A stretch of DNA of 40,276 nt from a virus (IMGVR_UViG_2713896903_000005), one strand, 5' to 3'. Counted from the first letter of the stretch, positions 9,902 through 30,575 are shown. Translations and numbers: made by a program. The notes: generated from the letters alone by a model not told the origin.

Positions 9902-10232
9902 ATCAGCAGCAGAGCGCAAAGCCGCTCAGAGAGCCAGACAAGCTGCATCTGGTGTGCGTAAGCTGGAAATTGTGCTTGATGCTCAGGAAATTGAAATGCT
10001 GGAGCGTAACTGTGCCACGCGTCGCCCCGGGCGTGCGCCTTACGAATTTGGTGAGTATATAGCGTTACTGATCCGCCAGGATGATGCACGCGTGCGCGGG
10101 CGTATAAAATCGATCAGCAGAAAACGTTGCGGTAAGTGCGGCGAGAGAGTTCCAGTTAATTCATGCCCGTGTAATGGTGACTCGCAATGCTGGGTGACTA
10201 AAGGCTGGCATGAAACGAAATTAATAGTGTGA
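9894..10232 (+). CDS. hypothetical protein with C-terminal Cys cluster
   Basis: ATG at 9894 (ORF-track TTG at 9891); CGKCG...CPC motif near the C-terminus. Confidence 0.4.
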   Translation: MAKSAAERKAAQRARQAASGVRKLEIVLDAQEIEMLERNCATRRPGRAPYEFGEYIALLIRQDDARVRGRIKSISRKRCGKCGERVPVNSCPCNGDSQCWVTKGWHETKLIV

Positions 10233-10240
10233 CATGTCAC
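10229..10240. repeat. 12-bp perfect palindrome GTGACATGTCAC (copy 1 of 3)
   Basis: Identical 12-mer also at 12680..12691 and 30539..30550; all three sit at gene or module junctions. Confidence 0.6.
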
Positions 10241-10249
10241 GAAGGTGTT

Positions 10250-10462
10250 ATGCCAAAAATACGCTACGACCTTGAAGATATGAGAGATAACTCAGCAAAT
10301 TTTCCGAAAGAGGTTAAATTTCTCATGCATAAGTATGGTTGCGCTAGGAGGGATATAGTTATCGACAGTCAGCACCCTTGCGGCGAGGATGTAATTTTCA
10401 TTCGCGGTAAATGGGAAGGGTATCTTGACGAGAGTTTTTACGATGAATTTGATGGACTTTGA
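10250..10462 (+). CDS. hypothetical small protein (70 aa)
   Basis: ATG at 10250 preceded by AAGGTG; the ORF-track GTG at 10229 lies inside the palindrome. Confidence 0.4.
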   Translation: MPKIRYDLEDMRDNSANFPKEVKFLMHKYGCARRDIVIDSQHPCGEDVIFIRGKWEGYLDESFYDEFDGL

Positions 10463-10467
10463 ATACT

Positions 10468-10493
10468 GCCGCCAACTATGGCGGCTTTATTTT
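10468..10493 (+). terminator. intrinsic terminator upstream of the packaging genes
   Basis: GCCGCC-AACTAT-GGCGGC hairpin followed by TTTATTTTG. Confidence 0.6.
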
Positions 10494-10504
10494 GCATGGT
10501 ACTA

Positions 10505-10519
10505 TTACCACAACGGTAA
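10505..10519. promoter_or_regulatory. operator-like palindrome TTACCACAACGGTAA
   Basis: Perfect site; an adjacent one-mismatch site at 10523..10537 ends at the terS start codon. Confidence 0.5.
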
Positions 10520-10536
10520 CTATTACCACGGTGGTT

Positions 10537-11133
10537 ATGATGCCTGCTGAACCTAAAACCTATAAACGCAAATCAACGCAATTTAAGCCACTAACAGCAA
10601 TGCAGGAGGCTTATTGCCAGTCATACATCAAAACGCCTGAAAACCAGACTCAGGCAGCGATTAACGCAGGATTCTCCCCAAATACAGCGGCAGTTAAAGC
10701 CAGTGTCATGATGCGCGATGAACGCATTCAAAAACGCATTGCCGAGTTGATGGAGGAGCGCAACAAACGAATGCGCGTCAGTGCTGATTACGTTCTCATG
10801 CGCCTGGTGGAGATCGACCAGATGGACGTGATCGACATCCTCAACGACGATGGGAGCCTTAAACCAATCCGTGAGTGGCCGAAAATCTGGCGCACTACGC
10901 TTAGTGGCTTTGATCTGTCATCGACCATCATGAACATGAACGAGGATTCGATAGAGACAATCCTCAAAAAAATTAAATGGCCTGACAAGGTGAAGAACCT
11001 TGAGCTGATTGGTAAGCATGTTGATGTCAACGCGTTCAAAGAACGCCTGGATGTTAATGTGAATGTGACAATTGCTGATCGCATAGCGGCAGCCAGGAAG
11101 CGACTCAAAGAACGTCAGGATGGTAATCAGTGA
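10537..11133 (+). CDS. terS: terminase small subunit
   Basis: Segment AYCQSYIKTPENQTQAAINAGFSPNTAAVKASVMMRDERIQKRI is typical of Terminase_2-type small subunits; ATG at 10537 chosen because the ORF-track TTG at 10459 would read through a terminator and operator sites. Confidence 0.7.
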   Translation: MMPAEPKTYKRKSTQFKPLTAMQEAYCQSYIKTPENQTQAAINAGFSPNTAAVKASVMMRDERIQKRIAELMEERNKRMRVSADYVLMRLVEIDQMDVIDILNDDGSLKPIREWPKIWRTTLSGFDLSSTIMNMNEDSIETILKKIKWPDKVKNLELIGKHVDVNAFKERLDVNVNVTIADRIAAARKRLKERQDGNQ

Positions 11134-12605
11134 CAGATACAGCGTTATCTCCTGAAGAGCAGTTGATCGAGGATATTGCAGGGTTCACTCACGATCCGCT
11201 TGGCTATGCCCTCTATGCGTTCCCGTGGGGGGAAGAGGGGACTGAACTGGCACATGCCACCGGCCCACGTCAGTGGCAGGCTGATGCGTTCCGAGAGATA
11301 CGTGATCACCTGCAGAATCCAGAGACGCGCTATCAGCCGCTTATGCTGGCACGCGCTTCTGGTCACGGTATTGGTAAATCCGCATTCATCTCAATGCTGA
11401 TCAACTGGGGCATGTCCACTTGCGAGGATTGTAAGGTCGTGGTGACCGCCAACACCGACAACCAGCTACGAACGAAGACCTGGCCGGAAATTATCAAGTG
11501 GTCGAACCTTGCTATCACGAAAGACTGGTTTACCTGTACCGCTACCGCGATGTACAGCAATGACCCTGGGCACGACAAGCGGTGGCGAGCTGACGCAATC
11601 CCCTGGTCTGAGCACAACACTGAGGCATTCGCCGGACTACACAACGAGCGAAAACGCATCATCGTGGTATTCGATGAAGCGTCGAACATTGCGGATCTGG
11701 TGTGGGAAGTTGCTGAGGGTGCGCTTACGGACGAAGACACTGAGATTATCTGGGTGGCGTTCGGAAACCCTACACGTAACACCGGACGTTTCCGCGAATG
11801 TTTCCGCAAATATAAACACCGCTGGAAAACTGCGCAGATTGACAGCCGGACGGTGGAAGGCACTAACAAACAGCAGTTGCAGAAATGGGTTGATGACTAC
11901 GGGGAAGACAGCGACTTCGTTAAAATCCGTGTGCGCGGCATATTCCCTGATGCATCTGAATTGCAGTTTATCCCTACCGGTCTTACTGATGAGGCAATGA
12001 AACGGGTGGTAACCGCTGCGCAGGTGGCGCATGCTCCGGTGATAATCGGTGTTGACCCGGCATATTCAGGCGTTGATGACGCGGTGATATACCTGCGGCA
12101 GGGGCTACACAGTAAGGTGCTGTGGACTGGCAACAAGACTACCGACGATCTGATTATGGCGAAGCGTATCGCTGACTTTGAAGACCAGTATCAGGCTGAC
12201 GCAGTGTTCATCGACTTCGGTTACGGAACCGGTTTGAAGTCAATCGGTGATGGCTGGGGACGTACATGGCAACTTGTTCCGTTCGGCGGTGCGTCCACTG
12301 ACCCGCAGATGCTTAACAAGCGTGGGGAGATGTTCAACTCATGTAAGACATGGCTGAGGCTGGGCGGCATGCTGGATGACCAGGAAACTGCAGACGACCT
12401 GTCGGCGGCAGAGTACAAAGTTCGTGTGGACGGTAAAATCGTTATCGAACCGAAGGAAGATATCAAAGAGCGTCTTGGGCGTTCGCCGGGTAAAGGCGAT
12501 GCGCTACTGCTGACGTTTGCTTTCCCGGTGTCGAAGCGCCTGCGACTTCCCGGGCAGCAGAACCAGCAAGGAAAGGCCATTACAGATTACGATCCCTATG
12601 CTTAA
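11130..12605 (+). CDS. terL: terminase large subunit
   Basis: 491 aa; Walker A-like ARASGHGIGKS and Walker B-like IIVVFDEAS; GTG start with SD overlapping the terS stop. Confidence 0.85.
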   Translation: MTDTALSPEEQLIEDIAGFTHDPLGYALYAFPWGEEGTELAHATGPRQWQADAFREIRDHLQNPETRYQPLMLARASGHGIGKSAFISMLINWGMSTCEDCKVVVTANTDNQLRTKTWPEIIKWSNLAITKDWFTCTATAMYSNDPGHDKRWRADAIPWSEHNTEAFAGLHNERKRIIVVFDEASNIADLVWEVAEGALTDEDTEIIWVAFGNPTRNTGRFRECFRKYKHRWKTAQIDSRTVEGTNKQQLQKWVDDYGEDSDFVKIRVRGIFPDASELQFIPTGLTDEAMKRVVTAAQVAHAPVIIGVDPAYSGVDDAVIYLRQGLHSKVLWTGNKTTDDLIMAKRIADFEDQYQADAVFIDFGYGTGLKSIGDGWGRTWQLVPFGGASTDPQMLNKRGEMFNSCKTWLRLGGMLDDQETADDLSAAEYKVRVDGKIVIEPKEDIKERLGRSPGKGDALLLTFAFPVSKRLRLPGQQNQQGKAITDYDPYA

Positions 12606-12679
12606 TCCGCTGGAGGGGATAATGCTGCTGATATCCTCTGATGAGGGTAAAACAAAGCCAGCTCATAGGCTGGCTGTTT

Positions 12680-12691
12680 GTGACATGTCAC
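12680..12691. repeat. 12-bp perfect palindrome GTGACATGTCAC (copy 2 of 3)
   Basis: Between the convergent terL and gp49-like genes, immediately after hairpin AGCCAGC-N6-GCTGGCT (12656..12675). Confidence 0.6.
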
Positions 12692-12695
12692 GGTG

Positions 12696-13076
12696 TTATT
12701 GCTCGCTTAACTTCTGCTTCAGCAAGTAACCTTCGAGCATCCAGATTTTGTTTACAGCATTCTGCCGGGCAATCTTCCGACCAATTTCTGCATCAAAGTT
12801 TTCCGGGCTTGCACAGGCACTCTCTCCGGTGACGGTGAAGCCATTCTTCAGCACCAGTACGCAGAAAGTGAGCAACTTCAATGGTGATAAATCACGATCG
12901 CCTTCTTCTGGTTTCTCTCTGCCACAATATTCGTTGCTGGAAATGGCACCATTTCGTCCATCATAAGCAGTAAAGTAATGCTCGCTTTTAATCACGTCTT
13001 CGATGTGCTGAGGAGTGATTCGCGGGGCTGTTTTGCCTTTCTCAACGATTTCTTTTTCGATTTGCTGGTCGTTCAT
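12696..13076 (-). CDS. Gp49-like (Phage_gp49_66 family) protein, moron
   Basis: 126 aa; C-terminal VTGESACASPENFDAEIGRKIARQNAVNKIWMLEGY pattern typical of the gp49/gene-66 family; opposite orientation to the packaging and head genes. Confidence 0.55.
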   Translation of the reverse strand: MNDQQIEKEIVEKGKTAPRITPQHIEDVIKSEHYFTAYDGRNGAISSNEYCGREKPEEGDRDLSPLKLLTFCVLVLKNGFTVTGESACASPENFDAEIGRKIARQNAVNKIWMLEGYLLKQKLSEQ

Positions 13077-13085
13077 AATCTCACC

Positions 13086-13111
13086 TTAAAAAAATGCCCG
13101 GCGAACCGGGC
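13086..13111 (-). terminator. terminator-like hairpin between the tRNA and the gp49-like gene
   Basis: Minus strand: GCCCGG-TTCG-CCGGGC followed by ATTTTTTT, only about 10 nt before the gp49-like SD and start; a second hairpin plus T-run lies at about 13190..13231. Confidence 0.45.
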
Positions 13112-13274
13112 GAACTGGAAGCAATGAGTTATGCCTTCCGTGGCTGTACTGGTTTACAGCATGAAGTCATCGCAATGGCGTCCTGCTGTAAAAAGGGCGG
13201 TGATAGTCCTTCAAGGGAAACCATCACCGCCAATCACCTGGAACTTCTGGTATTACGGTCCTTAGGCGTGATTC

Positions 13275-13351
13275 TGGCGTGGCATGCAGGATTCGAACCT
13301 GCGACCAACCGCTTAGAAGGCGGTTGCTCTGTCCAGCTGAGCTAATGCCAC
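13275..13351 (-). tRNA. tRNA-Arg (anticodon UCU)
   Basis: 77-nt cloverleaf read by hand on the minus strand: acceptor GTGGCAT/ATGCCAC, D-stem GCTC/GAGC, anticodon stem ACCGC/GCGGT with loop CTTCTAA, T-stem GCAGG/CCTGC with loop TTCGAAT, discriminator G, encoded CCA. Confidence 0.85.
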
Positions 13352-13673
13352 AACGCTGAGAGCACTTAGCCTGTTAAGGCGCCACACTTTGTCGCGGCTC
13401 CATAAATGCTCTCATCGTTGTACCATCGTCTCTTCCGAGGCGTCACACCGAATCGCCGGGATGGTGAATCCCCGTGCGCGGAATAAAACCGCTCGACTTG
13501 CACATTCCGGCTACCTGGTTCGTTTGCCCGAGCAAGGGAGGGTTCCCCTTAAACGTATCCAGACCGCTATCGGCGCATGTGCCATACGCCGTACTGCTCA
13601 AAATAAAAGCTCACTCCACCTGTTCAATTTAACGACAAGCCAGTCAGGTTAGTAACCGGAATGAACTCTTTGG

Positions 13674-13688
13674 TTACCCGAAAGGTAA
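13674..13688. promoter_or_regulatory. operator-like palindrome TTACCCGAAAGGTAA
   Basis: Perfect site in the 430-bp noncoding region upstream of the portal/head operon. Confidence 0.5.
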
Positions 13689-13778
13689 TAATTTGTGCGT
13701 TAAATGTCAACTATCTACGATAAATAAATCATATATGGTTAAATTGGTAATAATTTAATTGCGTACGGAGTCATTGAT

Positions 13779-13985
13779 ATGTGCATGGGTAGCTCACCAT
13801 CAGTGCCTGCAACACCAGAAGTTCAGGCAGCACCACAGGAGCAGGATGCCGCCGTTGTTGATGCCCGCGACGAAGAAACTCGTCGCCGTCGCGCTGCTGC
13901 TGGTCGTAGTTCTACGCTGCTTACCGGTTCTCAGGGCGACACATCAACCGCTAATACCAGCGGTAAAACGCTGCTTGGTCAGTAA
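13779..13985 (+). CDS. hypothetical small protein (68 aa), first gene of the head operon
   Basis: ATG with SD GGAG; acidic, Ala/Arg-rich; no recognisable domain. Confidence 0.4.
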   Translation: MCMGSSPSVPATPEVQAAPQEQDAAVVDARDEETRRRRAAAGRSSTLLTGSQGDTSTANTSGKTLLGQ

Positions 13986-13999
13986 CCGGAGTCATTGAA

Positions 14000-15679
14000 A
14001 TGGCGGAAACAACTAAAGAGCGATTGAACAAACAGTTCGCACAACTTGAAAGCGAGCGTCAGTCGTTCGAGCCGCACTGGCGCGAGTTGAGTGATTACAT
14101 CAACCCGCGTGGTTCCCGCTTTCTGACTTCTGAGGTCAACCGTAACGATCGACGCAATACACGCATTATTGATTCGACCGGGACTATGGCGGCGCGTACT
14201 CTCGCCAGCGGCATGATGTCTGGCATCACAAGCCCCGCGCGTCCGTGGTTTCGCCTGGCTACGCCAGATCCTGAAATGATGGATTATGGCCCTGTTAAGT
14301 TGTGGCTTGAGGCGGTGCAGAACCGCATGAACGATATGTTCAATAAGTCGAATCTCTATCAGTCGCTGCCGCAGTTATACGGAAGCCTCGGCACATACAG
14401 CACTGGCGCAATGGCGGTGCTGGAGGATGACGAGGACATCATTCGTACAATGCCATTCCCGATAGGAAGTTACTACCTGGCTAACTCACCTCGTGGCAGT
14501 GTGGACACCTGTTTTCGTAAGTTCTCTATGACTGTTCGTCAGCTTGTTCAGGAATTCGGACTAAATAACGTCAGCGAATCCGTAAAAAGCATGTGGGAAA
14601 GCGGCACCTACGAGAAGTGGATTGAAGTGATGCATTCGGTTTACCCGAACATTGACCGCGATACATCGAAGCTGGATAGCAAGAACAAGCCATTCAAATC
14701 GGTTTATTACGAGGTTGGTGGCGATAACGACAAGTTGTTGCGTGAGTCCGGATTCGATGAGTTTCCAATTATGGCTCCGCGCTGGGAAGTTAACGGCGAA
14801 GATGTTTATGGATCATCATGCCCGGGTATGCTGGCGCTTGGACCTGTTAAGGCATTGCAGCTTCTCCAGAAGCGCAAGTCGCAGTTGATTGATAAAGCCA
14901 CCAATCCGCCGATGGTTGCTCCGACTTCCCTCAAGAATCAGCGTGCCTCCCTTCTTCCTGGCGACATCACGTATATCGATCAGATTACTGGTCAGGATGG
15001 TTTCAGGCCTGCTTATCTGGTTAACCCCAGTACAGCAGATTTGGTGGCAGACATTCAGGACACTCGTCAAATCATTAACAGCGCCTACTTTGTCGATCTG
15101 TTCATGATGTTGCAGAACATCAACACCCGCTCGATGCCTGTTGAAGCGGTGATCGAAATGAAAGAAGAAAAACTTCTGATGTTGGGGCCGGTTCTGGAGC
15201 GTCTGAACGACGAATGTCTTAATCCTCTCATTGACCGCGCTTTCTCGATGATGGTGCGTAAAAACATGCTGCCGCCACCGCCTGACGCGATGGAAGGTAT
15301 GCCCCTGAAGGTCGAATACATTTCCGTCATGGCTCAGGCGCAGAAGTCTATCGGCCTGTCCAGTCTGGCATCCACGGTCAACTTCATTGGTCAACTTGCG
15401 CAAGCGAAACCAGAAGCTCTCGACAAACTCAACGTTGATCAGGCGATCGATGCATTCGCTGATATGTCCGGAGTGTCTCCAACCGTCATTGTTCCGCAGG
15501 AACAGGTTGAGCAGGCTCGCCAGCAACGGGCACAGCAACAACAGCAGCAACAAATGATGGCGATGGGGATGGCGGCGGCACAGGGTGCCAAGACGCTAAG
15601 CGAAGCTAAAACTTCGGATCCGAGTGTTTTGTCAGCTATGGCGAATGCAGTTAGTGGTCAGGGTGGGCAATCACAATGA
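14000..15679 (+). CDS. portal protein
   Basis: 559 aa, downstream of the terminase genes and upstream of scaffold and capsid genes; Gln/Ala-rich C-terminal tail; size and position typical of portal proteins. Confidence 0.7.
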   Translation: MAETTKERLNKQFAQLESERQSFEPHWRELSDYINPRGSRFLTSEVNRNDRRNTRIIDSTGTMAARTLASGMMSGITSPARPWFRLATPDPEMMDYGPVKLWLEAVQNRMNDMFNKSNLYQSLPQLYGSLGTYSTGAMAVLEDDEDIIRTMPFPIGSYYLANSPRGSVDTCFRKFSMTVRQLVQEFGLNNVSESVKSMWESGTYEKWIEVMHSVYPNIDRDTSKLDSKNKPFKSVYYEVGGDNDKLLRESGFDEFPIMAPRWEVNGEDVYGSSCPGMLALGPVKALQLLQKRKSQLIDKATNPPMVAPTSLKNQRASLLPGDITYIDQITGQDGFRPAYLVNPSTADLVADIQDTRQIINSAYFVDLFMMLQNINTRSMPVEAVIEMKEEKLLMLGPVLERLNDECLNPLIDRAFSMMVRKNMLPPPPDAMEGMPLKVEYISVMAQAQKSIGLSSLASTVNFIGQLAQAKPEALDKLNVDQAIDAFADMSGVSPTVIVPQEQVEQARQQRAQQQQQQQMMAMGMAAAQGAKTLSEAKTSDPSVLSAMANAVSGQGGQSQ

Positions 15680-15972
15680 CAGATTACGAAGACGATCAAC
15701 TGAAAGAAGAAAACGCCCGTAAGCAACGTGACATGGCACAGCGTGAAATTGATGACATTCGCTTTGTCATGAGCAGTGAACAGGGGCGTCGCGTTGTCTG
15801 GTCTGTGCTGGAGAAAGGCCGGGTGTTTTCCGCTATCTCTCCGATTGATGCTATGGCAATGGCATTTAATGAGGGGCAACGCAATCTGGCGCTGGAACTG
15901 TTTCAGCGCGTTATGGCGCATTGCCCTGAACAGTATTTGAAGATGGCCAAAGAGGCCAGTGAACAGGAGTGA
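15676..15972 (+). CDS. hypothetical head-assembly protein
   Basis: 98 aa; ATGA overlap with the portal stop; SD GGGTGGG. Confidence 0.45.
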   Translation: MTDYEDDQLKEENARKQRDMAQREIDDIRFVMSSEQGRRVVWSVLEKGRVFSAISPIDAMAMAFNEGQRNLALELFQRVMAHCPEQYLKMAKEASEQE

Positions 15973-15974
15973 TC

Positions 15975-16670
15975 ATGAATTTATTTGAGCGTTTGCTGTA
16001 TCGCCGTCTTTGCAATGAGCAACCAGTCGATGGTGGAGCAGCTCCGGCTGCGTCAGAACCATCAGCGCCTGCAGGTGATAACCCTGCTCCAGTTGGTGAT
16101 CCATCACAACCGGAAGGTGATAAGCCACAACCTGTTGCTGATGGCGATAAACCTGCTGATGACAAAAAGCCTGAAAACGATAAGCAGGATGAAAAAAAGG
16201 ACGGCGATAAACCAGAGGGTGCGCCTGAGAAGTACGAGTTTCAGGCTGCCGAAGGCGTAGAGCTGGATACAGAAGCGTTGAAGGAATTCGAGCCGGTGGC
16301 GCGAGAACTTAACCTGACCAACGAGCAAGCGCAAAAGCTGGTTGATGCTTATCCGAAGATTCTGGCAGGTGTTCAGCAGCGCCAGGCAGAAGCCTGGCAG
16401 AAAACAACCGAGCAGTGGGCTGCGGATGTAAAAGCTGACAAAGAAATCGGTGGCGACAAGTTGATTTCTAACCTTAGCGCCGCACAGCGTGCGCTTGACC
16501 AGTTCGGGACACCTGAACTCAAAGAATATCTGAACACCACCGGGCTGGGTAATCACCCTGATCTGGTCAAAACGTTCGTGAAAATCGGAAAGGCGATGTC
16601 TGAAGATGGCATGGTCACCGGTGGTAATGAAGGCCAGCGTAGTGCGGCCGAAGTGCTCTATGGCAAATAA
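15975..16670 (+). CDS. putative scaffolding protein
   Basis: Pro/Asp/Lys-rich acidic N-terminal half and helical C-terminal half, immediately upstream of the capsid gene; ATG at 15975 with SD AGGAG (ORF-track GTG at 15969). Confidence 0.5.
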   Translation: MNLFERLLYRRLCNEQPVDGGAAPAASEPSAPAGDNPAPVGDPSQPEGDKPQPVADGDKPADDKKPENDKQDEKKDGDKPEGAPEKYEFQAAEGVELDTEALKEFEPVARELNLTNEQAQKLVDAYPKILAGVQQRQAEAWQKTTEQWAADVKADKEIGGDKLISNLSAAQRALDQFGTPELKEYLNTTGLGNHPDLVKTFVKIGKAMSEDGMVTGGNEGQRSAAEVLYGK

Positions 16671-16678
16671 GAGAGGAA

Positions 16679-17671
16679 ATGACAATGGCTGTTAAAGGCT
16701 TAACTGCGCTAACGCTGGCTGACTGGGGTAAGCGCGTCGATCCAAACGGGAAAGTCGATAAGATTATCGAGCTTCTCGGTCAAACAAACCCGATCCTTCA
16801 GGATATGCCTTTTGTCGAAGGGAACCTTCCTACCGGACACCGAACCACCATTCGTTCTGGTTTACCTTCAGCTACCTGGCGTTTGCTGAACTATGGCGTA
16901 CAGCCAAGCAAATCAACCACAGTGCAGGTAACCGATTCCGTTGGCATGCTGGAAACCTATGCTGAAGTCGATAAGTCACTGGCTGATCTGAACGGTAATA
17001 CCGCCGAATTCCGCCTGTCTGAAGACCGCGCATTTATTGAAGCGATGAATCAGCAGATGGCGCAGACACTGTTTTATGGTGATTCCAGCGTTAACCCTCA
17101 GCAGTTTATGGGACTGTCCTCCCGCTATTCCAGCCTGTCTGCGGGTAATGCTCAGAACATCATTGATGCTGGTGGCACGGGTACAGATAACACCTCAATC
17201 TGGTTAGTGGTGTGGGGCGAAAACACCGTGCATGGCATCTTCCCGAAAGGGCAGAAGGCTGGCATCCAGATGGAAGATAAAGGCCAGGTGACACTGGAAG
17301 ATGCGAATGGCGGCAAGTACGAAGGCTACCGTACCCATTACAAATGGGACAACGGACTTGCTCTGCGTGACTGGCGTTATGTTGTTCGCATTGCAAACAT
17401 CGATGTCAGCAATCTTTCAGAACCTTCCTCTGCCGCAAATATTGCGAAGTTGATGGTTAAAGCACTGCATCGCATTCCAAATCGTGGCATGGGTCGCCCG
17501 GTGTTCTACATGAACCGCACTGTAGGCCAGGCTCTTGATCTGCAATCTCTGGAGAAAACATCTCTGGCGATCAGCGTAAAAGAGACAGAAGGCGAGTGGT
17601 GGACTTCATTCCGTGGTGTACCAATCCGTGAAACTGATGCGCTTCTGGAAACAGAAGCCCGCGTGGTGTAA
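16679..17671 (+). CDS. major capsid protein
   Basis: 330 aa directly after the scaffold-like gene; size and position typical; start may be the second ATG at 16685. Confidence 0.65.
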   Translation: MTMAVKGLTALTLADWGKRVDPNGKVDKIIELLGQTNPILQDMPFVEGNLPTGHRTTIRSGLPSATWRLLNYGVQPSKSTTVQVTDSVGMLETYAEVDKSLADLNGNTAEFRLSEDRAFIEAMNQQMAQTLFYGDSSVNPQQFMGLSSRYSSLSAGNAQNIIDAGGTGTDNTSIWLVVWGENTVHGIFPKGQKAGIQMEDKGQVTLEDANGGKYEGYRTHYKWDNGLALRDWRYVVRIANIDVSNLSEPSSAANIAKLMVKALHRIPNRGMGRPVFYMNRTVGQALDLQSLEKTSLAISVKETEGEWWTSFRGVPIRETDALLETEARVV

Positions 17672-17722
17672 CGCCTGTTATTAACCTGTGGGTCGTAACA
17701 GACCCACTAATGGAGAAAGAAG

Positions 17723-18160: not shown

Positions 18161-18170
18161 GGTGATATCG

Positions 18171-18506: not shown

Positions 18507-18522
18507 GCCTCGCGAATCCGAC

Positions 18523-18544
18523 AAGGGGCTTCGGCCCCTTTATT
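18523..18544 (+). terminator. intrinsic terminator
   Basis: AAGGGGC-TTCG-GCCCCTT hairpin followed by TTATTG. Confidence 0.65.
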
Positions 18545-18556
18545 GCAGGAGTGTAT

Positions 18557-22420: not shown

Positions 22421-22995
22421 TGTGCGATCCGGTTATTGCTGGTGGCGCAATGCTCGCCATGAGTGGCATTCAGGCATACACCCAGTACCAACAGGGAAAG
22501 TATGCCTCGAAGGTTGCAGAAGCGAACGCAGATATAGCCACTGCTCAGGCAAATGATGCAATAAACAGAGGTAACGCTGAAGCTGAGCAACGGCGCAGAG
22601 AGACCCGACAGCGGCTTGGTACACAAGCGGCGACAATGGGGGCGACCGGTGCTGATTTATCTACCGGTAACGCGCTGGATATATTTGGCGACACTGCCCA
22701 GTTTGGCGCTCTTGATTCTCTGACGACGGTGAATAACGCGCAACGCGAGGATTACGGTTATCAGGTTCAGGCTGCCAACTATAAAGCAGAAGCCAGTTCA
22801 GCCCGTAAACAGGGGAATGTGGGAGCAGCAACAACATTGCTCACTGCGCCTCTGAAGGCATACGGTGCGTACCAGATGTTTGGTGGGACGTGGAGTCCGT
22901 TCTCTAAAGGAAGTACATCTGGTGGTGGGACGCCAATGTTATCTAACTCAGGTTTTATGAATTCTGACTCCCGATTCAAAATAGGAGGTTACTGA
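22420..22995 (+). CDS. internal virion protein (gp14-like), tentative
   Basis: 191 aa; Ala/Gln-rich with MC... N-terminus, reminiscent of T7 gp14-type proteins. Confidence 0.4.
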   Translation: MCDPVIAGGAMLAMSGIQAYTQYQQGKYASKVAEANADIATAQANDAINRGNAEAEQRRRETRQRLGTQAATMGATGADLSTGNALDIFGDTAQFGALDSLTTVNNAQREDYGYQVQAANYKAEASSARKQGNVGAATTLLTAPLKAYGAYQMFGGTWSPFSKGSTSGGGTPMLSNSGFMNSDSRFKIGGY

Positions 22996-25616
22996 TGCCA
23001 GTCGTACCAACAGTATCCGGACGTCAGGTTGAGAGTCGTGGAGTTCAGTCAGCAGGCTTGCAGACGTTTTCTCAGCCAGGTATTGGTGATGCTTTTGTTC
23101 GGGCAGGGACAGAGGCAATTGATGTTCTGGGTCAGGAAAAACAGCGTGCCAATATTGCCTTGGTTCAGGAGGCATCCCTTAAACTCAGTCAGACAGGCAG
23201 CGATCTGCTGAATAACCCTGAAACAGGTTTGCTTAACCTGAAAGGGAAAAATGCTATTGGAAAAGGTCAGGAGTATACGCAGCAGTTTGATGCTCAGGTC
23301 GAACAACTGGCTATGTCGCTGCCGGATGAACAGGCTCGTAATGCTTTCATGCAGCAGGCGCAGCAGCAGCGTATTCAGTTCACTACGCAGGCCGGGAGGT
23401 ACGAAATAGGACAGGTTCGCCAGTATGAGGCGAATATGCAGGATGCGACACTAAAAAACCTATCGATGCAGTTCCGTAACCCGACAATGGCAAACCAGGC
23501 AGGATTGAAGGCATATCATAGCATCATCGCTTACGGCGAAGCCCACGGCCAGAGTCAAGAAGAGATCGAACAGAACTGGGTTTCGTGGCGCGAGAATGCC
23601 GCGAACGGTGCGGCGGAGGCGTGGTATGTGCCGATGTATCAACAGATGATGGGGCCGAACGGCAAGATTGAGGTAACCGATACACCGAGTGAGGCGCAGT
23701 TATTCTCTGCAATAATCTGGCAGGAGAGTGGCGGAAATCAGTACGGAAAGGACGGAACACCTCTGGTGTCGCCAAAAGGCGCTGTTGGCGTAGCGCAGGT
23801 GACGGAAGATACTGGCCCCGAAGCTGCCCGCCTTGCTGGTGTGCCGTGGGACCGAGATAAATGGTTGAATGACCCGCGCTATAATGCCCGCTTGGGGCAA
23901 GCTTATTTCGGCGCGCAGATGAAGAAATACGACAATAACCCGGTTCTGGCAGTAGCTGCCTATAACGCTGGCCCAGGAAAGGTTGACGGCTGGATTAAAC
24001 AGATTGGCGATCCGCGCACAGGCGAAGTCAGTAACGCCCAGTTTGCCGCAGCTATCCCATACGACGAGACGCGCAATTATGTGGCAAAAGTAACTGGCAG
24101 TGCTGGAGCTATTCCTGGATCTGCGACGATGGAAAACCTCATCGCACAGCCATTCTGGAACGCCATGAGTCCGGACAAAAAGTCGCAGATGATGAGCAAG
24201 GTTGCTGGCATGTACGACATGCAGGCTTCAGCCGGTCGCGTTGCGCTACAGAGTCGAATGCAGGACGACCTATCCAAAATTGAGGCCGGTAAGCAGGTGA
24301 CGCCTATTTCAGCGCACGAATGGGCCGCCGTTATGCCGCTTCAGGCAGCGCCTGCCGAGCGCCTGCAGATGGAAAAAACCTTCCAGCAATACCAGCAGGC
24401 AATGACGCTACAACCTGTTTATCAGACCATTATGCAGGGCAACGTCCAGCAGGGTACCGCCGCCGTGCAGGCAATGGCACCGCAGGAAAACGACCCTGAC
24501 TTTAAATACAAAGCCGAGCTTTATGCATCGGCAAAGGTCAAGCTTGGGCAGGTACTGAAGGCGCGGGAAGCGGATCCGGGGGCGTGGCTGCAACAAAACT
24601 CTCCGGTTGTGCAGGCTGCATTCCAGCAGTACCTCAATGACCCTTCATCTGGTGAATACCTAGTTTCCCGCATACAGTCTGAAAAAGACCGCTTGGGGAT
24701 AATGAGCAAAAAAGTTTTACCGGAGTCCATGGTCAACGACGTACTGCAGCGTATTGACAACACGCAGGAATCTAGCGTAAAGGCCATTCAGTCGGTGGCG
24801 CAGTCGTTCGGCAAATACTCGGACCAGGTGATGCGGCAGGTGCAAAATAAAGCATTCCCAGCTTTAAAGGTTGTAATGTCTACAGAAAACCAACGGGCAG
24901 CAGATGCGTTGTGGCAAATACGGAATGTACCTACTTCTGATTTGAGATCTGGCTTGGATAAAAACCAGGCAGACAGTGCAGACTCATCGTGGACAGATCA
25001 ATTTAAAGATTTTTCTTCAACTCTTATTCCTCAGAGAAATGGTGCTGAAAACTGGACTATTTATAACGAGCAGGGAAAACGCTTGACCTACAACTACATG
25101 CAGCGCGGAATGTCGGCGTCTGATGCAGCAAAACAGGCGTATCAGGACCTTCTCGGCGAGCAGTACCAGACCAATGGCACTTGGCGGCTACCTAATCGTG
25201 CAGGGATAGATATTCGTGACGTTAACGATGGTGCCAATGCGTATCTGAAAAACCTGTCAGCAGATCAGATTATGCCGCTTATTGGTGACCCAAGGCTACC
25301 TGATGAGGTCAACCGTGAGCAGAGTATCTCCCGCATTCGTGATAATGCGCAGTGGGTTACCAACAGCGACGAAACAGGACTTACCCTGATGCTCAACGGG
25401 CTGATCGTCAACGGTGCCGACGGCAACCCGATTACGGTGACGTTCAACGATCTGGCGAAACTGGGAACAACCAACCGATCAGTATGGAACAGCATTACCA
25501 AGTTCATTGATACTCCGGTGAAATATACTCCCGGACAGTCTAAGGAATACAGCGCAGAAAGTCAGCGCGACAACCTGATTAACATTTTCCAGAACGGCCA
25601 GCAATCAGGACGATAA
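22995..25616 (+). CDS. internal virion protein with lytic transglycosylase (SLT) domain
   Basis: 873 aa; SLT-like motifs IIWQESGGNQY...GAVGVAQV...AYNAGPG at about residues 235-330; SD GGAGG. Confidence 0.7.
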   Translation: MPVVPTVSGRQVESRGVQSAGLQTFSQPGIGDAFVRAGTEAIDVLGQEKQRANIALVQEASLKLSQTGSDLLNNPETGLLNLKGKNAIGKGQEYTQQFDAQVEQLAMSLPDEQARNAFMQQAQQQRIQFTTQAGRYEIGQVRQYEANMQDATLKNLSMQFRNPTMANQAGLKAYHSIIAYGEAHGQSQEEIEQNWVSWRENAANGAAEAWYVPMYQQMMGPNGKIEVTDTPSEAQLFSAIIWQESGGNQYGKDGTPLVSPKGAVGVAQVTEDTGPEAARLAGVPWDRDKWLNDPRYNARLGQAYFGAQMKKYDNNPVLAVAAYNAGPGKVDGWIKQIGDPRTGEVSNAQFAAAIPYDETRNYVAKVTGSAGAIPGSATMENLIAQPFWNAMSPDKKSQMMSKVAGMYDMQASAGRVALQSRMQDDLSKIEAGKQVTPISAHEWAAVMPLQAAPAERLQMEKTFQQYQQAMTLQPVYQTIMQGNVQQGTAAVQAMAPQENDPDFKYKAELYASAKVKLGQVLKAREADPGAWLQQNSPVVQAAFQQYLNDPSSGEYLVSRIQSEKDRLGIMSKKVLPESMVNDVLQRIDNTQESSVKAIQSVAQSFGKYSDQVMRQVQNKAFPALKVVMSTENQRAADALWQIRNVPTSDLRSGLDKNQADSADSSWTDQFKDFSSTLIPQRNGAENWTIYNEQGKRLTYNYMQRGMSASDAAKQAYQDLLGEQYQTNGTWRLPNRAGIDIRDVNDGANAYLKNLSADQIMPLIGDPRLPDEVNREQSISRIRDNAQWVTNSDETGLTLMLNGLIVNGADGNPITVTFNDLAKLGTTNRSVWNSITKFIDTPVKYTPGQSKEYSAESQRDNLINIFQNGQQSGR

Positions 25617-25617
25617 C

Positions 25618-27315
25618 ATGCCAATTTACACAGATGATCCGGGACAGGGAATTAACCAGCCAATTGGCAACGCGCCAGCAGGGCTTGGCGAATCGCTGCT
25701 TTCTTCCCTTAAGCAGGGATTTGAAGAGGGGCCGGTCATGTCCGGCTACCGCTTTGCGCAGGCCGACTCGCTGGCGAATGACCCAAACTCTACAGTTATC
25801 AGTAAGCAGGAAGCGGATGAGCTCCTGAAGCAGTACGGCGTAAAGAGCATAAACGTGCCAGATTCTGGCGTTACGCAGGCTTTTCTCGATCATGTTATTG
25901 CCGAACGCAAAGATTCTCTGGCACGCCAGCAGATCGCGATGTCGGCACCGAGCGGATGGGTAGCCACGCCGCTTAATTTCGCAGCCAGCCTAGCTGGTTC
26001 AATGGCAGATCCTGGTAACGTGGCGCTGGCGCTGGTTCCGTTCGCTGGAGAAGCAAAGGCGGCTTCTGTGCTTGGCCGATTTGGCGAGCGATTTGTTGCT
26101 GGTGCACGCATGGGGGCAGCGCAGGCGGTGGTGACCGTGCCGCTTACCGGGCTGGCAGCGGCGGCGGAAGGTGACGACTTCACCTATAGCAACGCGTTGG
26201 AAAGTACTTTCTTTAACACGATGGCTGGCGGTCTAATGCATGCCGGCGGCGGCCTTATCGCCGATATCGTGCGACCGCGTCGCGTTCCCGATGCTGCAAC
26301 GGGAGAGTCCCCGGCGTTTTCTGGCGATGCGCAGCCAACCCCGGTGATAACGCCTGACAACATTCCGGCGGGCGTGAATATCCCTGAGGTTGGCGCTAAC
26401 GCAGATCTGGCGGCTGCCATTTCCAGTGAAGCGGAGAGCTACGCATACAGCCGGGCTTATGACGACGTGGTTCCTGACTATATGGCGCGCCAGCAGGAGT
26501 TACAGAGCGGGCAGATCGGTAACGTTGCCGACCTGCGTGCCGAGCTTGCGGCTAATCAACGTCATGCTGACTCTCTTGATGCGACGCTGCAGCAGCGCAC
26601 CAAAAAGTATCAGGGGCAGCGGATGAAGTTTAAGGATGCGCGCTCTAGGGCACTGAAAGAGATTCAGGCCGAGAAAGACGCCATCGCTGCACGCAATCAG
26701 GAGATCAACACATCGCTGGAGCAGAACGCGACAGCAGAGCAGGCGCGCTGGCGCCAGTCTCAGATTTCCCGCGGCGAGATCCCCGACGACCTGAAAGTCA
26801 CCATTTCCGAGCGTGCGCAGCAGATCCTGGACGGCATGCAGATGTCGCCGGTCGCTGGCGCAGTTCGCACTGCCGCAAGCGCCATCAGGGATGCTGACTG
26901 GAGCGTGAACCAGCAGGCGTATCGCGCTGCGCTGGCACACATGATGGAAGGACGTAGCCCAGATGTTGAGCCCTTCTATGAACTGCACAAACCGGCACTG
27001 CGTGAACGCGCCATCCATCGCATACAGAACCCGGCACGGCAGGTTGATGAAACGGCTCGCCCAGCAAGCGAAACAGCCGATCGGGTTTATCAAGAAACGC
27101 AAAAGGCAGATCATGAAATTACCGCTGCCGCTGCAGACCTTGATAACGAGCTCAACCTGAGTAACGCCCTGCTTGACGATATCGCTGTCGATAACCCTGA
27201 TCTTGCGACCACGTTGCGCCAGAAACTCAATGATATTCGTGCAGACGCCAGCGACAATAGCATGAGCAACGCTTTCCGGGCATTTGCCGCCTGTATGATT
27301 AACCGGGGGATGTGA
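25618..27315 (+). CDS. internal virion / ejection protein
   Basis: 565 aa, Ala-rich, between the SLT protein and a large ejection protein. Confidence 0.45.
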   Translation: MPIYTDDPGQGINQPIGNAPAGLGESLLSSLKQGFEEGPVMSGYRFAQADSLANDPNSTVISKQEADELLKQYGVKSINVPDSGVTQAFLDHVIAERKDSLARQQIAMSAPSGWVATPLNFAASLAGSMADPGNVALALVPFAGEAKAASVLGRFGERFVAGARMGAAQAVVTVPLTGLAAAAEGDDFTYSNALESTFFNTMAGGLMHAGGGLIADIVRPRRVPDAATGESPAFSGDAQPTPVITPDNIPAGVNIPEVGANADLAAAISSEAESYAYSRAYDDVVPDYMARQQELQSGQIGNVADLRAELAANQRHADSLDATLQQRTKKYQGQRMKFKDARSRALKEIQAEKDAIAARNQEINTSLEQNATAEQARWRQSQISRGEIPDDLKVTISERAQQILDGMQMSPVAGAVRTAASAIRDADWSVNQQAYRAALAHMMEGRSPDVEPFYELHKPALRERAIHRIQNPARQVDETARPASETADRVYQETQKADHEITAAAADLDNELNLSNALLDDIAVDNPDLATTLRQKLNDIRADASDNSMSNAFRAFAACMINRGM

Positions 27316-29864
27316 TGGCAGCAAACGAATTTTTGACGCAGTGCGAGCGCAGTGTAAATGCTGCCGCTGGTCGCGAGCTTTCTTCCGATGAGATGGAGTC
27401 GCTGGTGCGTGACATGAACGACACCACTAGGCGAATTCTGGCGACCAATGAGGCGCTGTCTCTGGAAGAGGCCGCTATGCGCGCAGCGGAAGAACTGGGC
27501 AATGCCGATATGCTGGCAAAACAGATTGAGGCTCGCAATAAGGCAATCAACACCCGTATTGCCGCACAACGACTTAGAGAGCTTCGTACTATCTGGAAAG
27601 ACCGCCCGGATATCGGGCTTGAAGCAATGCTGGTTGGCCGCAACGATGCGCGTACCGGCGCCCGCCGGTCGGTATCTTCGGAGGTGGCGCAACTGCGCGG
27701 CAAGTATCATTCCGGTATCAACTACGATTTTGACCGTGCCGGGCTGGTGCAATTCATCGCCAGCGGCAGCAATGACAGGGAAATTGCCGATGCAATGTGG
27801 CGCATAGGGCGCGGGCAGTCAACTGACGGTATGACAAAGCAATCCGTAAGCGCTGCACAAATCATCATGAAATGGCAGGAAACTGCGCGCATTGATGAGA
27901 ACCGCGCCGGGGCATGGATACGCAAAGAGCCGGGCTATATAGTGCGCCAGTCACACTACATCATGAAGATCCGCGCCGCAGGTTATGAAGCATGGCGAAA
28001 TGCTATTCTCCCGCGCCTTGATGAGCGCACTTTTGACGGCGTGGCTGACCGCGAGCAGTTCATGCGTAACATTTATAACGGGCTGGCTTCCGGCGTGCAT
28101 CTTACATCTGAAAAGCCAGATTGGATGAATGGCTTTAAGGGATTGGCGAACGCAGCTAAACGCGCCAGCCAAGAGCGAATTTTGCACTTCAAAGATGGTA
28201 TCTCGTGGCACGAGTACAACCAGCAATTCGGCACCGGCAGCCTGCGAGAGGCGCTGTTTGGTGGCTTAAACAGCGCTGCCCGCACAACGGGCATGATGCG
28301 CGTACTGGGCACTAACCCACAGAACATGTTTAAGTACCTGACGGACACCATTGCTGAAGATATCAGCAAATCCGGAAGACCGGCAGCGTTGGCTGACTAC
28401 ATGACGAAGGTGCGTCGCATTAACCGTACCGTAATGCCGCAGGTTGACGGCTCGCTAAATATTCCTGGCAGCGTAGGCTGGGCCAATGCGTCGGCGGCTG
28501 TACGCGGCTGGTTGCGTATGAGCCAGCTTGGTGGCGCGGTAATCTCATCGTTTAACGACGTGCCTATCGCCGCTACCGAGATGCGCTACCAAGGGCAGAA
28601 TTTTATGCAGGCGTTGCTTGGTGCTATGAGAGGCCGCTTAACGCGTTACAACAGCGCGGAGCAGAAAGAGATCCTTTCCTCTATCGGAGTTTATTCCGAC
28701 TCCATGACGCAGGAAATCATCCGGCGCATATCTGGTGATGACACGCTGAATGGAAAACTTGGTCGCGCGCAGCAGCTTTTCTTTAAGTACAACCTCATGA
28801 ACTTCTGGACCGAGAGCGGTCGTAACAGCAACGCCATGATGATAACCAACTGGCTTGCAAAGAATGCTGACCAGTCTCATGCGCGGCTACCGGAAGACCT
28901 GCGACGCGTGCTGGATCTGCACGGTATTGGCGAACGTGAGTGGGAAATTTTTCGCAACATGGACATGGCCGATAGCGAAGGTCGTAAGTTCATGACGACC
29001 AGCGGCATCCGCGGCGTGCCTGACGAAGTGATTGCCGGTTATGTAGAGAGTAAGGGGATCAAACCAACGCAGCGCGCTATCGCTGACGCACGCGATCAAT
29101 TGGAAGGGCAGTTGCGCGGCTACATCCTTGACCGCCTGAATATCGCCATGTCAGAGCCTGGCGATCGCACGCAGGCGTTTATGAAGATGGGCACGGTGCC
29201 AGGAACGGTGGCTGGGGAAGCAATACGATTCGCTGGTCAGTACAAATCGTTCACTGCAAGCTTCATGCAGAACGTACTAGGACGCGAAGTATTCGGGCGT
29301 GGTTATATTCCTGCTGGGCTTGGTGAGTCGAAAACCGGATCGCTGACGAATGCGCTGCTACGTAACGGGAAGGGGGCTTTCCTTGGTGCTGCAAATCTCT
29401 TTGTCTGGGCGACTATGTTTGGTTATATCTCCATGCAGTCAAAACTCATGCTGAAAGGGCAAACACCACGCCCGGCAGATGCCAAGACGTTTCTCGCAGC
29501 CGCATCTCAGGGGGGCGGTCTTGGCATCTTGGGTGACTTCATGTTTGGCGAGGTCAACCGCATGGGGGCCGGGCCGGTTACGTCGCTAATGGGGCCAGCA
29601 GCATCGAACGCTGACAGCATTATCACGCTGCTCCAGCAGACCACGAGAGGGGATGCAGATTTGGGTGACTGGTATCGCACGGCACTTGACAATACGCCAT
29701 TCCTCAACGTGTTCTGGCTTCGTACGGCGATGAATGGTTTAATATTGAACCGGATACAAGATGCCCTTGACCCAGGCTCTCTTGAGCGTTATCAGCGCCG
29801 TGTTGAGCGTGAACAGGGTAACGACTTTCTGATCCCACCATCGCAGTTCATGCTAGGGAAGTAA
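27315..29864 (+). CDS. large internal virion / ejection protein
   Basis: About 850 aa; ATG at 27315 overlaps the upstream stop (ORF-track GTG at 27312); hydrophobic segment near the C-terminus consistent with membrane insertion during ejection. Confidence 0.45.
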   Translation: MAANEFLTQCERSVNAAAGRELSSDEMESLVRDMNDTTRRILATNEALSLEEAAMRAAEELGNADMLAKQIEARNKAINTRIAAQRLRELRTIWKDRPDIGLEAMLVGRNDARTGARRSVSSEVAQLRGKYHSGINYDFDRAGLVQFIASGSNDREIADAMWRIGRGQSTDGMTKQSVSAAQIIMKWQETARIDENRAGAWIRKEPGYIVRQSHYIMKIRAAGYEAWRNAILPRLDERTFDGVADREQFMRNIYNGLASGVHLTSEKPDWMNGFKGLANAAKRASQERILHFKDGISWHEYNQQFGTGSLREALFGGLNSAARTTGMMRVLGTNPQNMFKYLTDTIAEDISKSGRPAALADYMTKVRRINRTVMPQVDGSLNIPGSVGWANASAAVRGWLRMSQLGGAVISSFNDVPIAATEMRYQGQNFMQALLGAMRGRLTRYNSAEQKEILSSIGVYSDSMTQEIIRRISGDDTLNGKLGRAQQLFFKYNLMNFWTESGRNSNAMMITNWLAKNADQSHARLPEDLRRVLDLHGIGEREWEIFRNMDMADSEGRKFMTTSGIRGVPDEVIAGYVESKGIKPTQRAIADARDQLEGQLRGYILDRLNIAMSEPGDRTQAFMKMGTVPGTVAGEAIRFAGQYKSFTASFMQNVLGREVFGRGYIPAGLGESKTGSLTNALLRNGKGAFLGAANLFVWATMFGYISMQSKLMLKGQTPRPADAKTFLAAASQGGGLGILGDFMFGEVNRMGAGPVTSLMGPAASNADSIITLLQQTTRGDADLGDWYRTALDNTPFLNVFWLRTAMNGLILNRIQDALDPGSLERYQRRVEREQGNDFLIPPSQFMLGK

Positions 29865-29865
29865 T

Positions 29866-30237
29866 ATGAACAGAATTATATTAATGATTATTCTTATGCT
29901 TTTAGTTGTAGAATCTTTTGCAGATACTACCTCACCGTTAATGATTCAGCCTAAAAATGGGGAAACACTGGAGGATTCTAAAAAGCATACAATGGAATAT
30001 TTTGGATGTATAAAAGGGCAGGTCGTAAAATACGCTAAGACAGGAGAAAGTGTTGATTCTATATCCAAAGCTTCGGTTGTGTCATGCGAGTCGTACATAC
30101 AAAAGATTGCTGAATCAAATATATACTATTTAAATTCCTCTCAAGACGGTAAGCGGAAATTTATTGGAAGGCTTAAATCAGATGGTGAAAATTTAGCAAC
30201 GAAATTTGCTATGGATGAAAAGCTAAAAAATAAATAG
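29866..30237 (+). CDS. AT-rich moron: small secreted protein
   Basis: 123 aa; N-terminal signal-peptide-like segment MNRIILMIILMLLVVESFA; visibly lower GC than the flanking virion genes. Confidence 0.5.
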   Translation: MNRIILMIILMLLVVESFADTTSPLMIQPKNGETLEDSKKHTMEYFGCIKGQVVKYAKTGESVDSISKASVVSCESYIQKIAESNIYYLNSSQDGKRKFIGRLKSDGENLATKFAMDEKLKNK

Positions 30238-30245
30238 GTGACTAC

Positions 30246-30542
30246 ATGCAAGCGATAGGATTCATTGTTTATATCGTCGTTGGTCTTTTTCAGTTGGCAG
30301 CAATTATGGCTGGGCTTGAATCATGGTGGGGATTGCACTGGATAATTGCAGCCCCCATTGCTTTCATCGTGAGCTATATTCCATTTGTTGGAGCGATTGT
30401 TGGTATGGTTGGCGCTGTGGATGTATGGCGGTGGGAGTGGTGGCAGGCTGGCCTTCTCTTCTTTGGTGGGATCATCTTTGCTATTGTCTGCGGTGGAATG
30501 TCATCATTTTTCGAATGGCTATCATTCAGAAAAGGGACGTGA
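30246..30542 (+). CDS. AT-rich moron: small integral membrane protein
   Basis: 98 aa with two to three hydrophobic helices; SD AGGTGA; followed by a palindrome and a strong terminator. Confidence 0.5.
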   Translation: MQAIGFIVYIVVGLFQLAAIMAGLESWWGLHWIIAAPIAFIVSYIPFVGAIVGMVGAVDVWRWEWWQAGLLFFGGIIFAIVCGGMSSFFEWLSFRKGT

Positions 30543-30550
30543 CATGTCAC
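30539..30550. repeat. 12-bp perfect palindrome GTGACATGTCAC (copy 3 of 3)
   Basis: Overlaps the stop codon of the membrane-protein moron and directly precedes a terminator. Confidence 0.6.
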
Positions 30551-30575
30551 AGGCCGCTTTCGCGGCCTTGTTTTT
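30551..30575 (+). terminator. intrinsic terminator ending the virion/moron operon
   Basis: AGGCCGC-TTTC-GCGGCCT hairpin followed by TGTTTTT. Confidence 0.7.

Follow-up and report, generated by a model that had tools for sequence, protein, structure and literature searches.

A GTGAC-N2-GTCAC palindrome as the candidate operator of a ribbon-helix-helix regulator in temperate phages

We analysed the sequence IMGVR_UViG_2713896903_000005 (the window, that is, the whole stretch of 40,276 nucleotides (nt)), a phiV10/epsilon15-like (Uetakevirus) prophage of E. coli that carries three exact copies of the palindromic 12-mer GTGACATGTCAC, of the form GTGAC-N2-GTCAC. The results of our searches showed that this motif accompanies, in very different phages, the gene of a small regulator which is located at 9894..10232 on the plus strand of the window and whose product is predicted to combine a ribbon-helix-helix (RHH) DNA-binding fold with a zinc ribbon. 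We consider it probable, from this distribution and from the predicted fold, that the RHH/zinc-ribbon regulator recognises GTGAC-N2-GTCAC as its cognate DNA operator. A protein-binding site was among the roles that the initial annotation had suggested for the palindrome, and the pairing of gene and motif supports that suggestion and supplies a candidate protein. It also provides a candidate cis-element for a family of uncharacterised regulators that many temperate phages of Enterobacterales, Vibrio and Aeromonas possess, among them the model phages N15 (gp46), epsilon15 and phiV10.

Three copies of the palindrome in the window

An exact search of the window returned the motif at 10229..10240 (copy 1), 12680..12691 (copy 2) and 30539..30550 (copy 3), the same three perfect copies that had been noted initially, and the expectation of about 0.002 copies given with them matches our value for a given 12-mer (40276/4^12 = 0.0024). 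No copy of GTGACATGTCAC was found in any of 100 dinucleotide-preserving shuffles, and the probability of three or more copies, summed over all 4096 palindromes of 12 bp, is about 1e-5 by our own arithmetic. These shuffles, together with the enrichment and spacing counts given below, rule out a chance origin of the palindrome. The 14-mer TGTGACATGTCACG is common to all three copies once the strand is adjusted, copy 3 being in the reverse orientation. Allowing up to two mismatches added a single site to the three, the one-mismatch copy GTGACATGGCAC at 15728..15739, which is inside the coding sequence of the open reading frame (ORF) 15676..15972, is shared by close relatives only and probably lies outside the motif system. 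The same variant is present about 25 nt upstream of the sole exact motif of Yersinia phage vB_YenM_42.18 (our locus L241, about 11672), a recurrence that may be a coincidence or may reflect a weak secondary site.

Each copy lies at a gene boundary, as had been claimed. Copy 1 holds the TGA stop codon (10230-10232) of the regulator gene and ends 9 nt 5' of the ATG of a variable cargo ORF of 70 amino acids (10250..10462, plus strand; phrog_1541), which occupies the space between copy 1 and the intrinsic terminator T1 (10468..10485, plus strand; GCCGCC-N6-GGCGGC then TTTATTTT), located immediately upstream of terS. Copy 2 is found 4 nt from the terminator hairpin T2 (12656..12675), between terL and a minus-strand cargo gene of the N4 gp49 / Sf6 gp66 family (12696..13076; PF13876, E = 3e-35), and 4 nt past the stop codon of that gene; the scan called T2 on the minus strand, the one with the stronger T-run. 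Copy 3 is directly 5' of the intrinsic terminator T3 (30551..30568, plus strand; AGGCCGC-TTTC-GCGGCCT then TGTTTTT), with which the structural-gene operon ends, and it holds the TGA stop codon of a cargo ORF of 98 amino acids (30246..30542, plus strand; phrog_3075). The two copies reported to adjoin terminator-like hairpins are thus copies 2 and 3, copy 1 being 228 nt upstream of T1. The description of the copy 1 junction as one between nin-like and packaging genes missed that the gene ending in the motif encodes a DNA-binding regulator.

Comparison with other Uetakeviruses showed that Salmonella phages E15 and SPN1S and Enterobacter phage Tyrion carry the identical 12-mer at all three syntenic positions, where the ungapped identity of the adjoining 30 nt is only 23-50%, with the exception of the coding left flank of copy 1 (about 75%). 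Copy 2 is syntenic in phiV10, E15, Tyrion and SPN1S, and copy 1 of phiV10 is the one-mismatch variant GTGACATGTTAC. TL-2011b is without copy 2 and has a different terminator at that place. T1 is located directly upstream of terS in every Uetakevirus examined, and its distance from the motif is 23-41 nt in the relatives versus 228 nt in the window. The GenBank records of phiV10 (L001 39101-39104 plus 1-8) and Tyrion (L004 41755-41760 plus 1-6) were opened inside copy 1, just past the stop codon of the regulator gene, and copy 1 is invisible in these linear records because they were linearised within the motif.

The regulator family and its association with the motif

The regulator (112 amino acids) belongs to the family of phiV10 gp55, epsilon15 gp49 and N15 gp46 and matches phrog_536, labelled 'transcriptional regulator'. 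The family comprises 154 representatives at 50% clustering, from Enterobacterales, Vibrio and Aeromonas hosts. Its conserved features are a basic N-terminal helix (AERKxAQRxR), which makes the N-terminus arginine-rich, an RHH-like core and invariant cysteines (CxxC...C). The predicted structure places the protein within the RHH fold and adds a C-terminal zinc ribbon formed by the cysteines. A Pfam scan that included 40 family members returned no Pfam family for the regulator. A TraR/DksA-like zinc finger was considered and rejected, the similarity found in a PDB sequence-profile search being weak (E about 0.4). Our literature searches returned nothing relevant on N15 gene 46 or on the function of the family; GTGACATGTCAC was found in no paper, and the two papers containing GTGACTGGTCAC are unrelated eukaryotic studies.

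We then looked at loci fetched through diverse homologues of the regulator (L085-L235). In most of them GTGAC-N2-GTCAC overlaps the TGA stop codon of the regulator gene, and in loci with a TAA or TAG stop codon the motif is located 2-6 nt past that codon. The motif is not a coding by-product of the C-terminus of the regulator, because it persists at this short distance downstream of the TAA and TAG stops. The homologue loci contain 210 sites in 2.26 Mb versus about 2 expected. The spacer is strict: in 3.87 Mb of loci the N2 form was found 350 times and the N0, N1, N3 and N4 forms 0 to 1 time (N3 = 0), the next highest count being that of N5 (11). Of 376 syntenically aligned sites, 290 are identical to GTGACATGTCAC, and the others differ mainly in the central two bases (CCTG, CGTG, CACG, CGCG and CCAG), changes of the half-sites being rare. 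Nearly invariant half-sites around two free central base pairs are the pattern expected of the DNA site of a dimer, and the association as a whole is that of a short palindromic candidate operator co-occurring with the gene.

The motif is present in one to three copies per genome in unrelated types of phages that have a homologue of the regulator. N15 and phiKO2 have three syntenic sites each, GTGAC[TG/CA]GTCAC, located at the stop codon of gene 46, inside repA, and in the space that separates gene 33 from the terminator preceding the antirepressor operon; those of N15 are at 28550, 33237 and 39269. Three sites were also found in Pectobacterium phage ZF40, one of them within a cII-like gene, and in Vibrio phage K233, one of them directly upstream of terS. 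A Xenorhabdus P2-like prophage has one site, 4 nt past the stop codon of the regulator gene and followed by a terminator, and gene and motif are also paired in temperate phages with a T7-type portal. Lambda and P2, both without the regulator gene, have no site. Where the motif lies within coding sequence, it is kept at synonymous positions. One such case is a minus-strand gene of unknown function (phrog_2479; L166 1985, L203 944, L207 3709, L165 3093 and others), in which the motif encodes T-C-D-M-S and the synonymous positions are kept across strongly diverged sequences; in L166 this gene adjoins a cI-like repressor gene.

Searches that started from the motif gave results in the same direction. 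Among partial IMG/VR loci picked by the motif, at least 36 of 119 came from contigs with the regulator, a lower bound since these loci are parts of contigs. Of 120 loci from a scan of species-representative genomes with a 14-mer, six carry the regulator, and four of these have the motif at the 3' end of the regulator gene. The regulator-bearing genome loci were from Enterobacterales wherever the title was readable, and the genome-wide matches were mostly chance matches in unrelated phyla, with about 15 Enterobacterales among the approximately 80 titles shown.

A candidate operator at the ends of transcription units

In 207 sites the internal TGA of the motif terminates an ORF of 45 codons or more (the -4 position), and in 80 sites a stop codon ends exactly 4 nt before the motif, unrelated cargo ORFs included. 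Approximately 175 of the 376 sites have a terminator-like hairpin some tens of nt further on in the sense direction.

From these observations and the fold we infer that the regulator binds the motif and thereby acts on transcription. The protein would bind as a symmetric oligomer to half-sites whose centres are 8 bp apart, like adjacent MetJ boxes. The three candidate operators of the window are at 3' ends of transcription units, at the stop codon or 4 nt beyond it and beside intrinsic terminators, namely where the early-right operon ends before T1 and terS, where terL meets the moron at T2, and where the structural operon ends at T3. The regulator, as a delayed-early product, would accumulate and then control the crossing of these terminator-marked borders by RNA polymerase. 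We favour a read-through into terS and the late genes that depends on the regulator, since the late operon behind T1 is essential and the scan called no sigma-70-like promoter at T1 or further downstream. Further sites are found at T2 and T3, along a plus-strand path of about 20 kb through the packaging and structural genes. The alternative is that the bound protein would act as a bidirectional roadblock or insulator at convergent junctions. The promoter scan called no sigma-70-like site at or around copy 1 and only two minus-strand sites, inside terL. We also considered the motif as a -35 element (GTGACA) or as part of a promoter spacer, and rejected both since the candidate -10 boxes are inconsistent across relatives and copies. 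The operators of CI and Cro were rejected as well, the cI-cro intergenic region (4430-4585) having unrelated repeats without GTGAC half-sites. To our knowledge it is not known how epsilon15-like phages pass the conserved terminator before terS, and the pairing of a regulator with a site makes this passage directly testable.

Comparison with the Q/qut/tR' module of lambda (and with AlpA of P. aeruginosa) showed a similar order of elements: the regulator gene is the last of the early-right operon and is followed by a DNA site, a conserved terminator, terS and the late genes. However, no promoter is embedded around the phage site, and the distances between site and terminator, which begins 12-41 nt past the motif in relatives, are incompatible with a promoter-proximal pause. 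The regulator has no similarity to the Q family (no Pfam or NCBIfam Q-family match), and N15 and ZF40 have a Q-like antiterminator gene besides it. Known RHH pairs (P22 Arc and Mnt, MetJ, CopG, omega) likewise consist of a small RHH protein and a short symmetric operator, and the 8-bp spacing of the half-sites is that of tandem MetJ boxes. They differ from the present pair in that our regulator has an additional C-terminal zinc ribbon, that its sites are at the 3' end of its gene and at distant places next to terminators rather than at its own promoter, and that a single operator sequence is conserved throughout the family, which is unusual. The sop centromere sites of N15 and phiKO2 are also 5-N2-5 palindromes dispersed over three to four places of the same genomes, including the inside of repA, but their sequence (CGACC-N2-GGTCG), their protein (SopB/ParB) and their function (partition) are different. 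We located this second palindrome at 33482, 35933, 41127 and 45564 in N15 (L239) and at 14635, 17075, 22114 and 25348 in phiKO2 (L244), where it coincides with the annotated 'putative plasmid partitioning sites'; one of these sites is 245 bp from the GTGAC site inside repA.

Several observations weigh against the operator reading. The link between protein and site is made by co-occurrence and fold, and RHH repressors do not typically have their operator at the 3' end of the gene that encodes them. The distance between motif and terminator ranges widely, from 1 nt (copy 3) to 228 nt (copy 1) in the window, and copy 2 is downstream of its hairpin for plus-strand transcription. Some homologue loci have no motif at the end of the gene (L166, L169-171, L194 and L176), and distant Aeromonas members lack the N2 form and have variant or split repeats, GTGACCGG-N30-CCGGTCAC or repeated GTGACCGGACAC. 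The presence of the regulator could be checked in a minority of the motif-picked loci, these being partial contigs. A few point-mutant copies of the motif occur among near-identical prophages, so that single sites are dispensable in the short term. The separate Q-like antiterminators of N15 and ZF40 and the arrangement in the Xenorhabdus P2-like prophage, where the unit of gene, motif and terminator is convergent with the late genes, indicate that late antitermination is not the role of the whole family. That role may be broader, either as a roadblock or insulator or as a context-dependent repressor or activator.

Cargo exchange, other readings and neighbouring features

The copies of the motif border variable cargo in related phages, at copies 1, 2 and 3 alike, and the boundary between exchangeable modules that the initial annotation had proposed is therefore borne out as a correlate. 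At copy 2 the left side (terL and the hairpin) is conserved and the right side consists of at least seven unrelated minus-strand ORFs. BLAST homology to phiV10, TL-2011b, PH444 and others resumes at 30538, one base before copy 3, and PAS61 shares with the window just a 32-bp island made of the motif and T3. Among 97 distinct IMG/VR sites this island has at least eight unrelated left flanks and at least three unrelated right flanks, a conserved island at the junctions of unrelated genes. In phages with a T7-type portal a cargo gene is located between two copies of the motif in L166 and L176, the two copies of L176 differing in their central dinucleotide, and the site is empty in L194 and L165. 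The 70-amino-acid ORF next to copy 1, which ends in YDEFDGL*, is reduced to an eight-codon in-frame deletion remnant, MHDEFDGF*, in phiV10 and TL-2011b; this origin explains the MHDEFDGF micro-ORF, which we had also considered as a leader peptide. Epsilon15-like phages and L017 have remnants of the same kind (MKDEFDRF* and MKYEFDGF*) next to copy 2, on the minus strand, so that one family of small ORFs is found beside copy 1 or copy 2 in different phages. Positions noted for this comparison are 1-45 in L001 (phiV10) and 11520-11546 in L002.

T3 has a near-identical twin without the motif (AGGCCGCTCTTGCGGCCT) at 33724..33741 on the plus strand, and the two (AGGCCGC-N4-GCGGCCT) bracket a minus-strand module of 3.2 kb encoding the antirepressor and a membrane protein. 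In 11 of the 97 IMG/VR sites the motif and T3 are joined directly to the sequence following 33741, the antirepressor module being missing, and the whole 3.2-kb module is therefore a cassette. The varied flanks of the islands indicate that regulatory islands, with or without the motif, are points of exchange. Islands of motif and terminator are the sole short sequences common to otherwise mosaic relatives and, being located in insertion-tolerant gaps, have in our reading become the breakpoints of cargo. PeSL elements of T4-type phages and the moron junctions of lambdoid phages are mosaic boundaries or mobile regulatory cassettes, and they resemble the present islands in that a short regulatory element (motif and stem-loop) is found at the exact junctions, with cargo sometimes between two copies. 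The island described here differs from them in that it consists of a candidate protein operator and a terminator instead of a promoter and a stem-loop, in that it is tied to one regulator family, and in that the motif is also found inside genes. It is a sequence-defined example of conserved islands (operator and terminator, in our reading) exactly at mosaic junctions, linkers that are predicted by modular theories of phage evolution and have rarely been pinned down.

These data could also mean that the motif, alone or with the terminator, is primarily a recombination boundary for the swapping of morons, the regulator gene being just one of the cassettes. We regard this as possible at best. Variable cargo does begin a few nt from every copy, unrelated cargo ORFs stop exactly 4 nt before the motif, the 32-bp island of PAS61 and the start of homology at 30538 are as expected of such a boundary, and so is cargo between two copies alongside empty sites. 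The phage encodes homologues of RecT and of exonuclease VIII, identified by homology to the annotations of phiV10 and TL-2011b. However, homologous exchange would have a very short stretch of 12 bp to work with, the motif has no linked site-specific recombinase, and the motif-less terminator at 33724-33741 borders its cassette equally well. The motif is kept inside repA of N15, the cII-like gene of ZF40 and the phrog_2479 genes without variation of cargo there, and it is conserved across types of phages that share nothing but the regulator gene. A role in exchange is moreover compatible with an operator, the two not being mutually exclusive.

That the motif acts as RNA, as a small hairpin of a 3' untranslated region or leader, as a nut/boxB-like element or as a signal for stability or processing, read by the regulator or by a host factor, appears unlikely to us. 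The fixed position relative to stop codons (-4 in 207 sites, +4 in 80) would suit such a signal, as would the terminator downstream of the motif, in the sense of the transcript, which copy 3, copy 2 (on the minus strand) and many relatives have. The variable centre would form the loop, two stem variants in the sense orientation are compatible with G-U pairs, and the N-terminus of the regulator is rich in arginine. The stem, however, has just 4-5 bp; its energy is -2.7 to -2.9 kcal/mol, and comparison with shuffles gave z-scores of -0.2 and -1.5. This folding, no better than that of shuffled sequence, favours a DNA site. No clear wobble bias was seen, with about three events preserving pairing versus two to three disrupting it, the events being few, and Rfam families gave no matches at the motif sites. 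The protein linked to the motif has, as modelled, a fold that binds double-stranded DNA. We therefore favour a site in double-stranded DNA, given the RHH fold, the dyad symmetry, the strict spacing with a free centre, the occurrence of sites in both orientations and inside genes, and a hairpin of only -2.7 kcal/mol.

The resemblance to matS, the site of the host protein MatP, is an unexplained lead. The matS sequence is GTGAC[AG]N[TC]GTCAC (PMC3603311, PMC8669397). Our motif is the E. coli matS consensus, GTGACATTGTCAC, less one central base: the GTGAC and GTCAC half-sites and the dyad are identical, the copies are few and dispersed in both cases, and MatP also has an RHH domain. The hosts of the regulator family (Enterobacterales, Vibrio, Aeromonas) coincide with the clade that bears MatP. 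True matS, with its N3 spacer and 13 bp, was found 0 times in the 3.87 Mb of loci and is reported to be absent from prophages (PMC3603311). The near-identity of the motif to a site otherwise avoided by prophages offers a testable link to the machinery that organises the host chromosome.

One extension of this likeness is that the regulator and its sites are a phage-borne, orthogonal counterpart of MatP and matS, invisible to MatP in the lysogen, which would serve during lytic growth in the bridging or insulation of modules or in the manipulation of MukBEF/MatP-dependent DNA organisation and would double as linkers for exchange; we consider it speculative and quite unlikely. That host MatP or a phage analogue of MatP bridges or loops the three sites or excludes MukBEF, with no control of transcription, is in our view very unlikely, even though the near-identity of the sites, the clade of the hosts and the absence of true matS all point that way. 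The regulator showed no homology to MatP (PF06303 and PF17414; hhalign probability below 1% and no MatP Pfam match in 40 members), and a protein search with MatP returned near-identical sequences alone. It lacks the four-helix bundle of MatP and the parts that interact with ZapB and MukB. The spacer of the phage sites is strictly 2 bp instead of 3, and binding by MatP is doubtful because the spacer, shorter by 1 bp, turns the half-sites by about 34 degrees. The phage sites are located on phage DNA at gene ends and terminators, one to three sites per genome leave little to organise, and the identity of the half-sites could be a coincidence.

A nuclease or methyltransferase target had also been suggested by the initial annotation. 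That the motif is the target of the phage's orphan adenine methyltransferase, or of a nuclease of the restriction or homing type, can be dismissed as extremely improbable: these phages encode a homologue of N6-adenine methyltransferases (annotated in phiV10 and TL-2011b) and the motif contains short palindromic subsites, but sites that number one to three per genome and keep fixed syntenic positions do not resemble the 4-6-bp specificity of methylases and restriction-modification systems, the motif accompanies the RHH gene in phages with differing methylases, no nuclease gene is consistently linked to it, and the site is intact beside the gene, which is not the case for a homing target.

Other features of the window and of its relatives were noted in the same regions. 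T1 separates the regulator gene from terS, which starts at about 10537 (probable ATG at 10537 or 10540). The mechanical start of the terS ORF (TTG at 10459) takes in T1 and is probably wrong; in practice, annotation pipelines give an over-long terS that includes the terminator. Two direct repeats (GGTACTATTACCAC and GGTAACTATTACCAC, 10498-10529), located between T1 and the probable start of terS, are kept in every Uetakevirus examined and might represent a TerS/pac element or belong to a late promoter. A minus-strand tRNA-Arg gene (anticodon TCT; 13275-13351) is found in the variable region that separates copy 2 from the portal gene. Rfam matches on the minus strand to C4 antisense RNA (32648-32731) and isrK (32756-32832) are found directly upstream of the Bro-N antirepressor gene (31889..32614), and this region is an RNA-controlled antirepressor module of the P1 c4/immI type.

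Conserved elements also follow the regulator gene in relatives of the window. IMG/VR contigs that end about 246 bp past the regulator gene were considered as physical genome termini, and this was rejected since such contigs stop at gene boundaries, an indication of trimming. In the P0121 group (L086-L164) a small conserved hairpin, CCYGTTGCAGCRGG, is present about 20-35 nt past the motif, with compensatory changes (CCTG..CAGG versus CCCG..CGGG), and lies before the Shine-Dalgarno sequence of the gene that follows. This gene encodes, in a subset (e.g., L089 and L096), an AlpA-like protein, and there the provirus contigs end right past it. In one group of relatives (L167, L174, L179-L202 and others) TTGACT-N17-TACTGT is located approximately 6-60 nt past the stop codon of the regulator gene, after copy 1, and its TACTGT overlaps a perfect LexA box (TACTGT-N8-ACAGTA), which suggests an SOS-controlled promoter for the next cargo gene.

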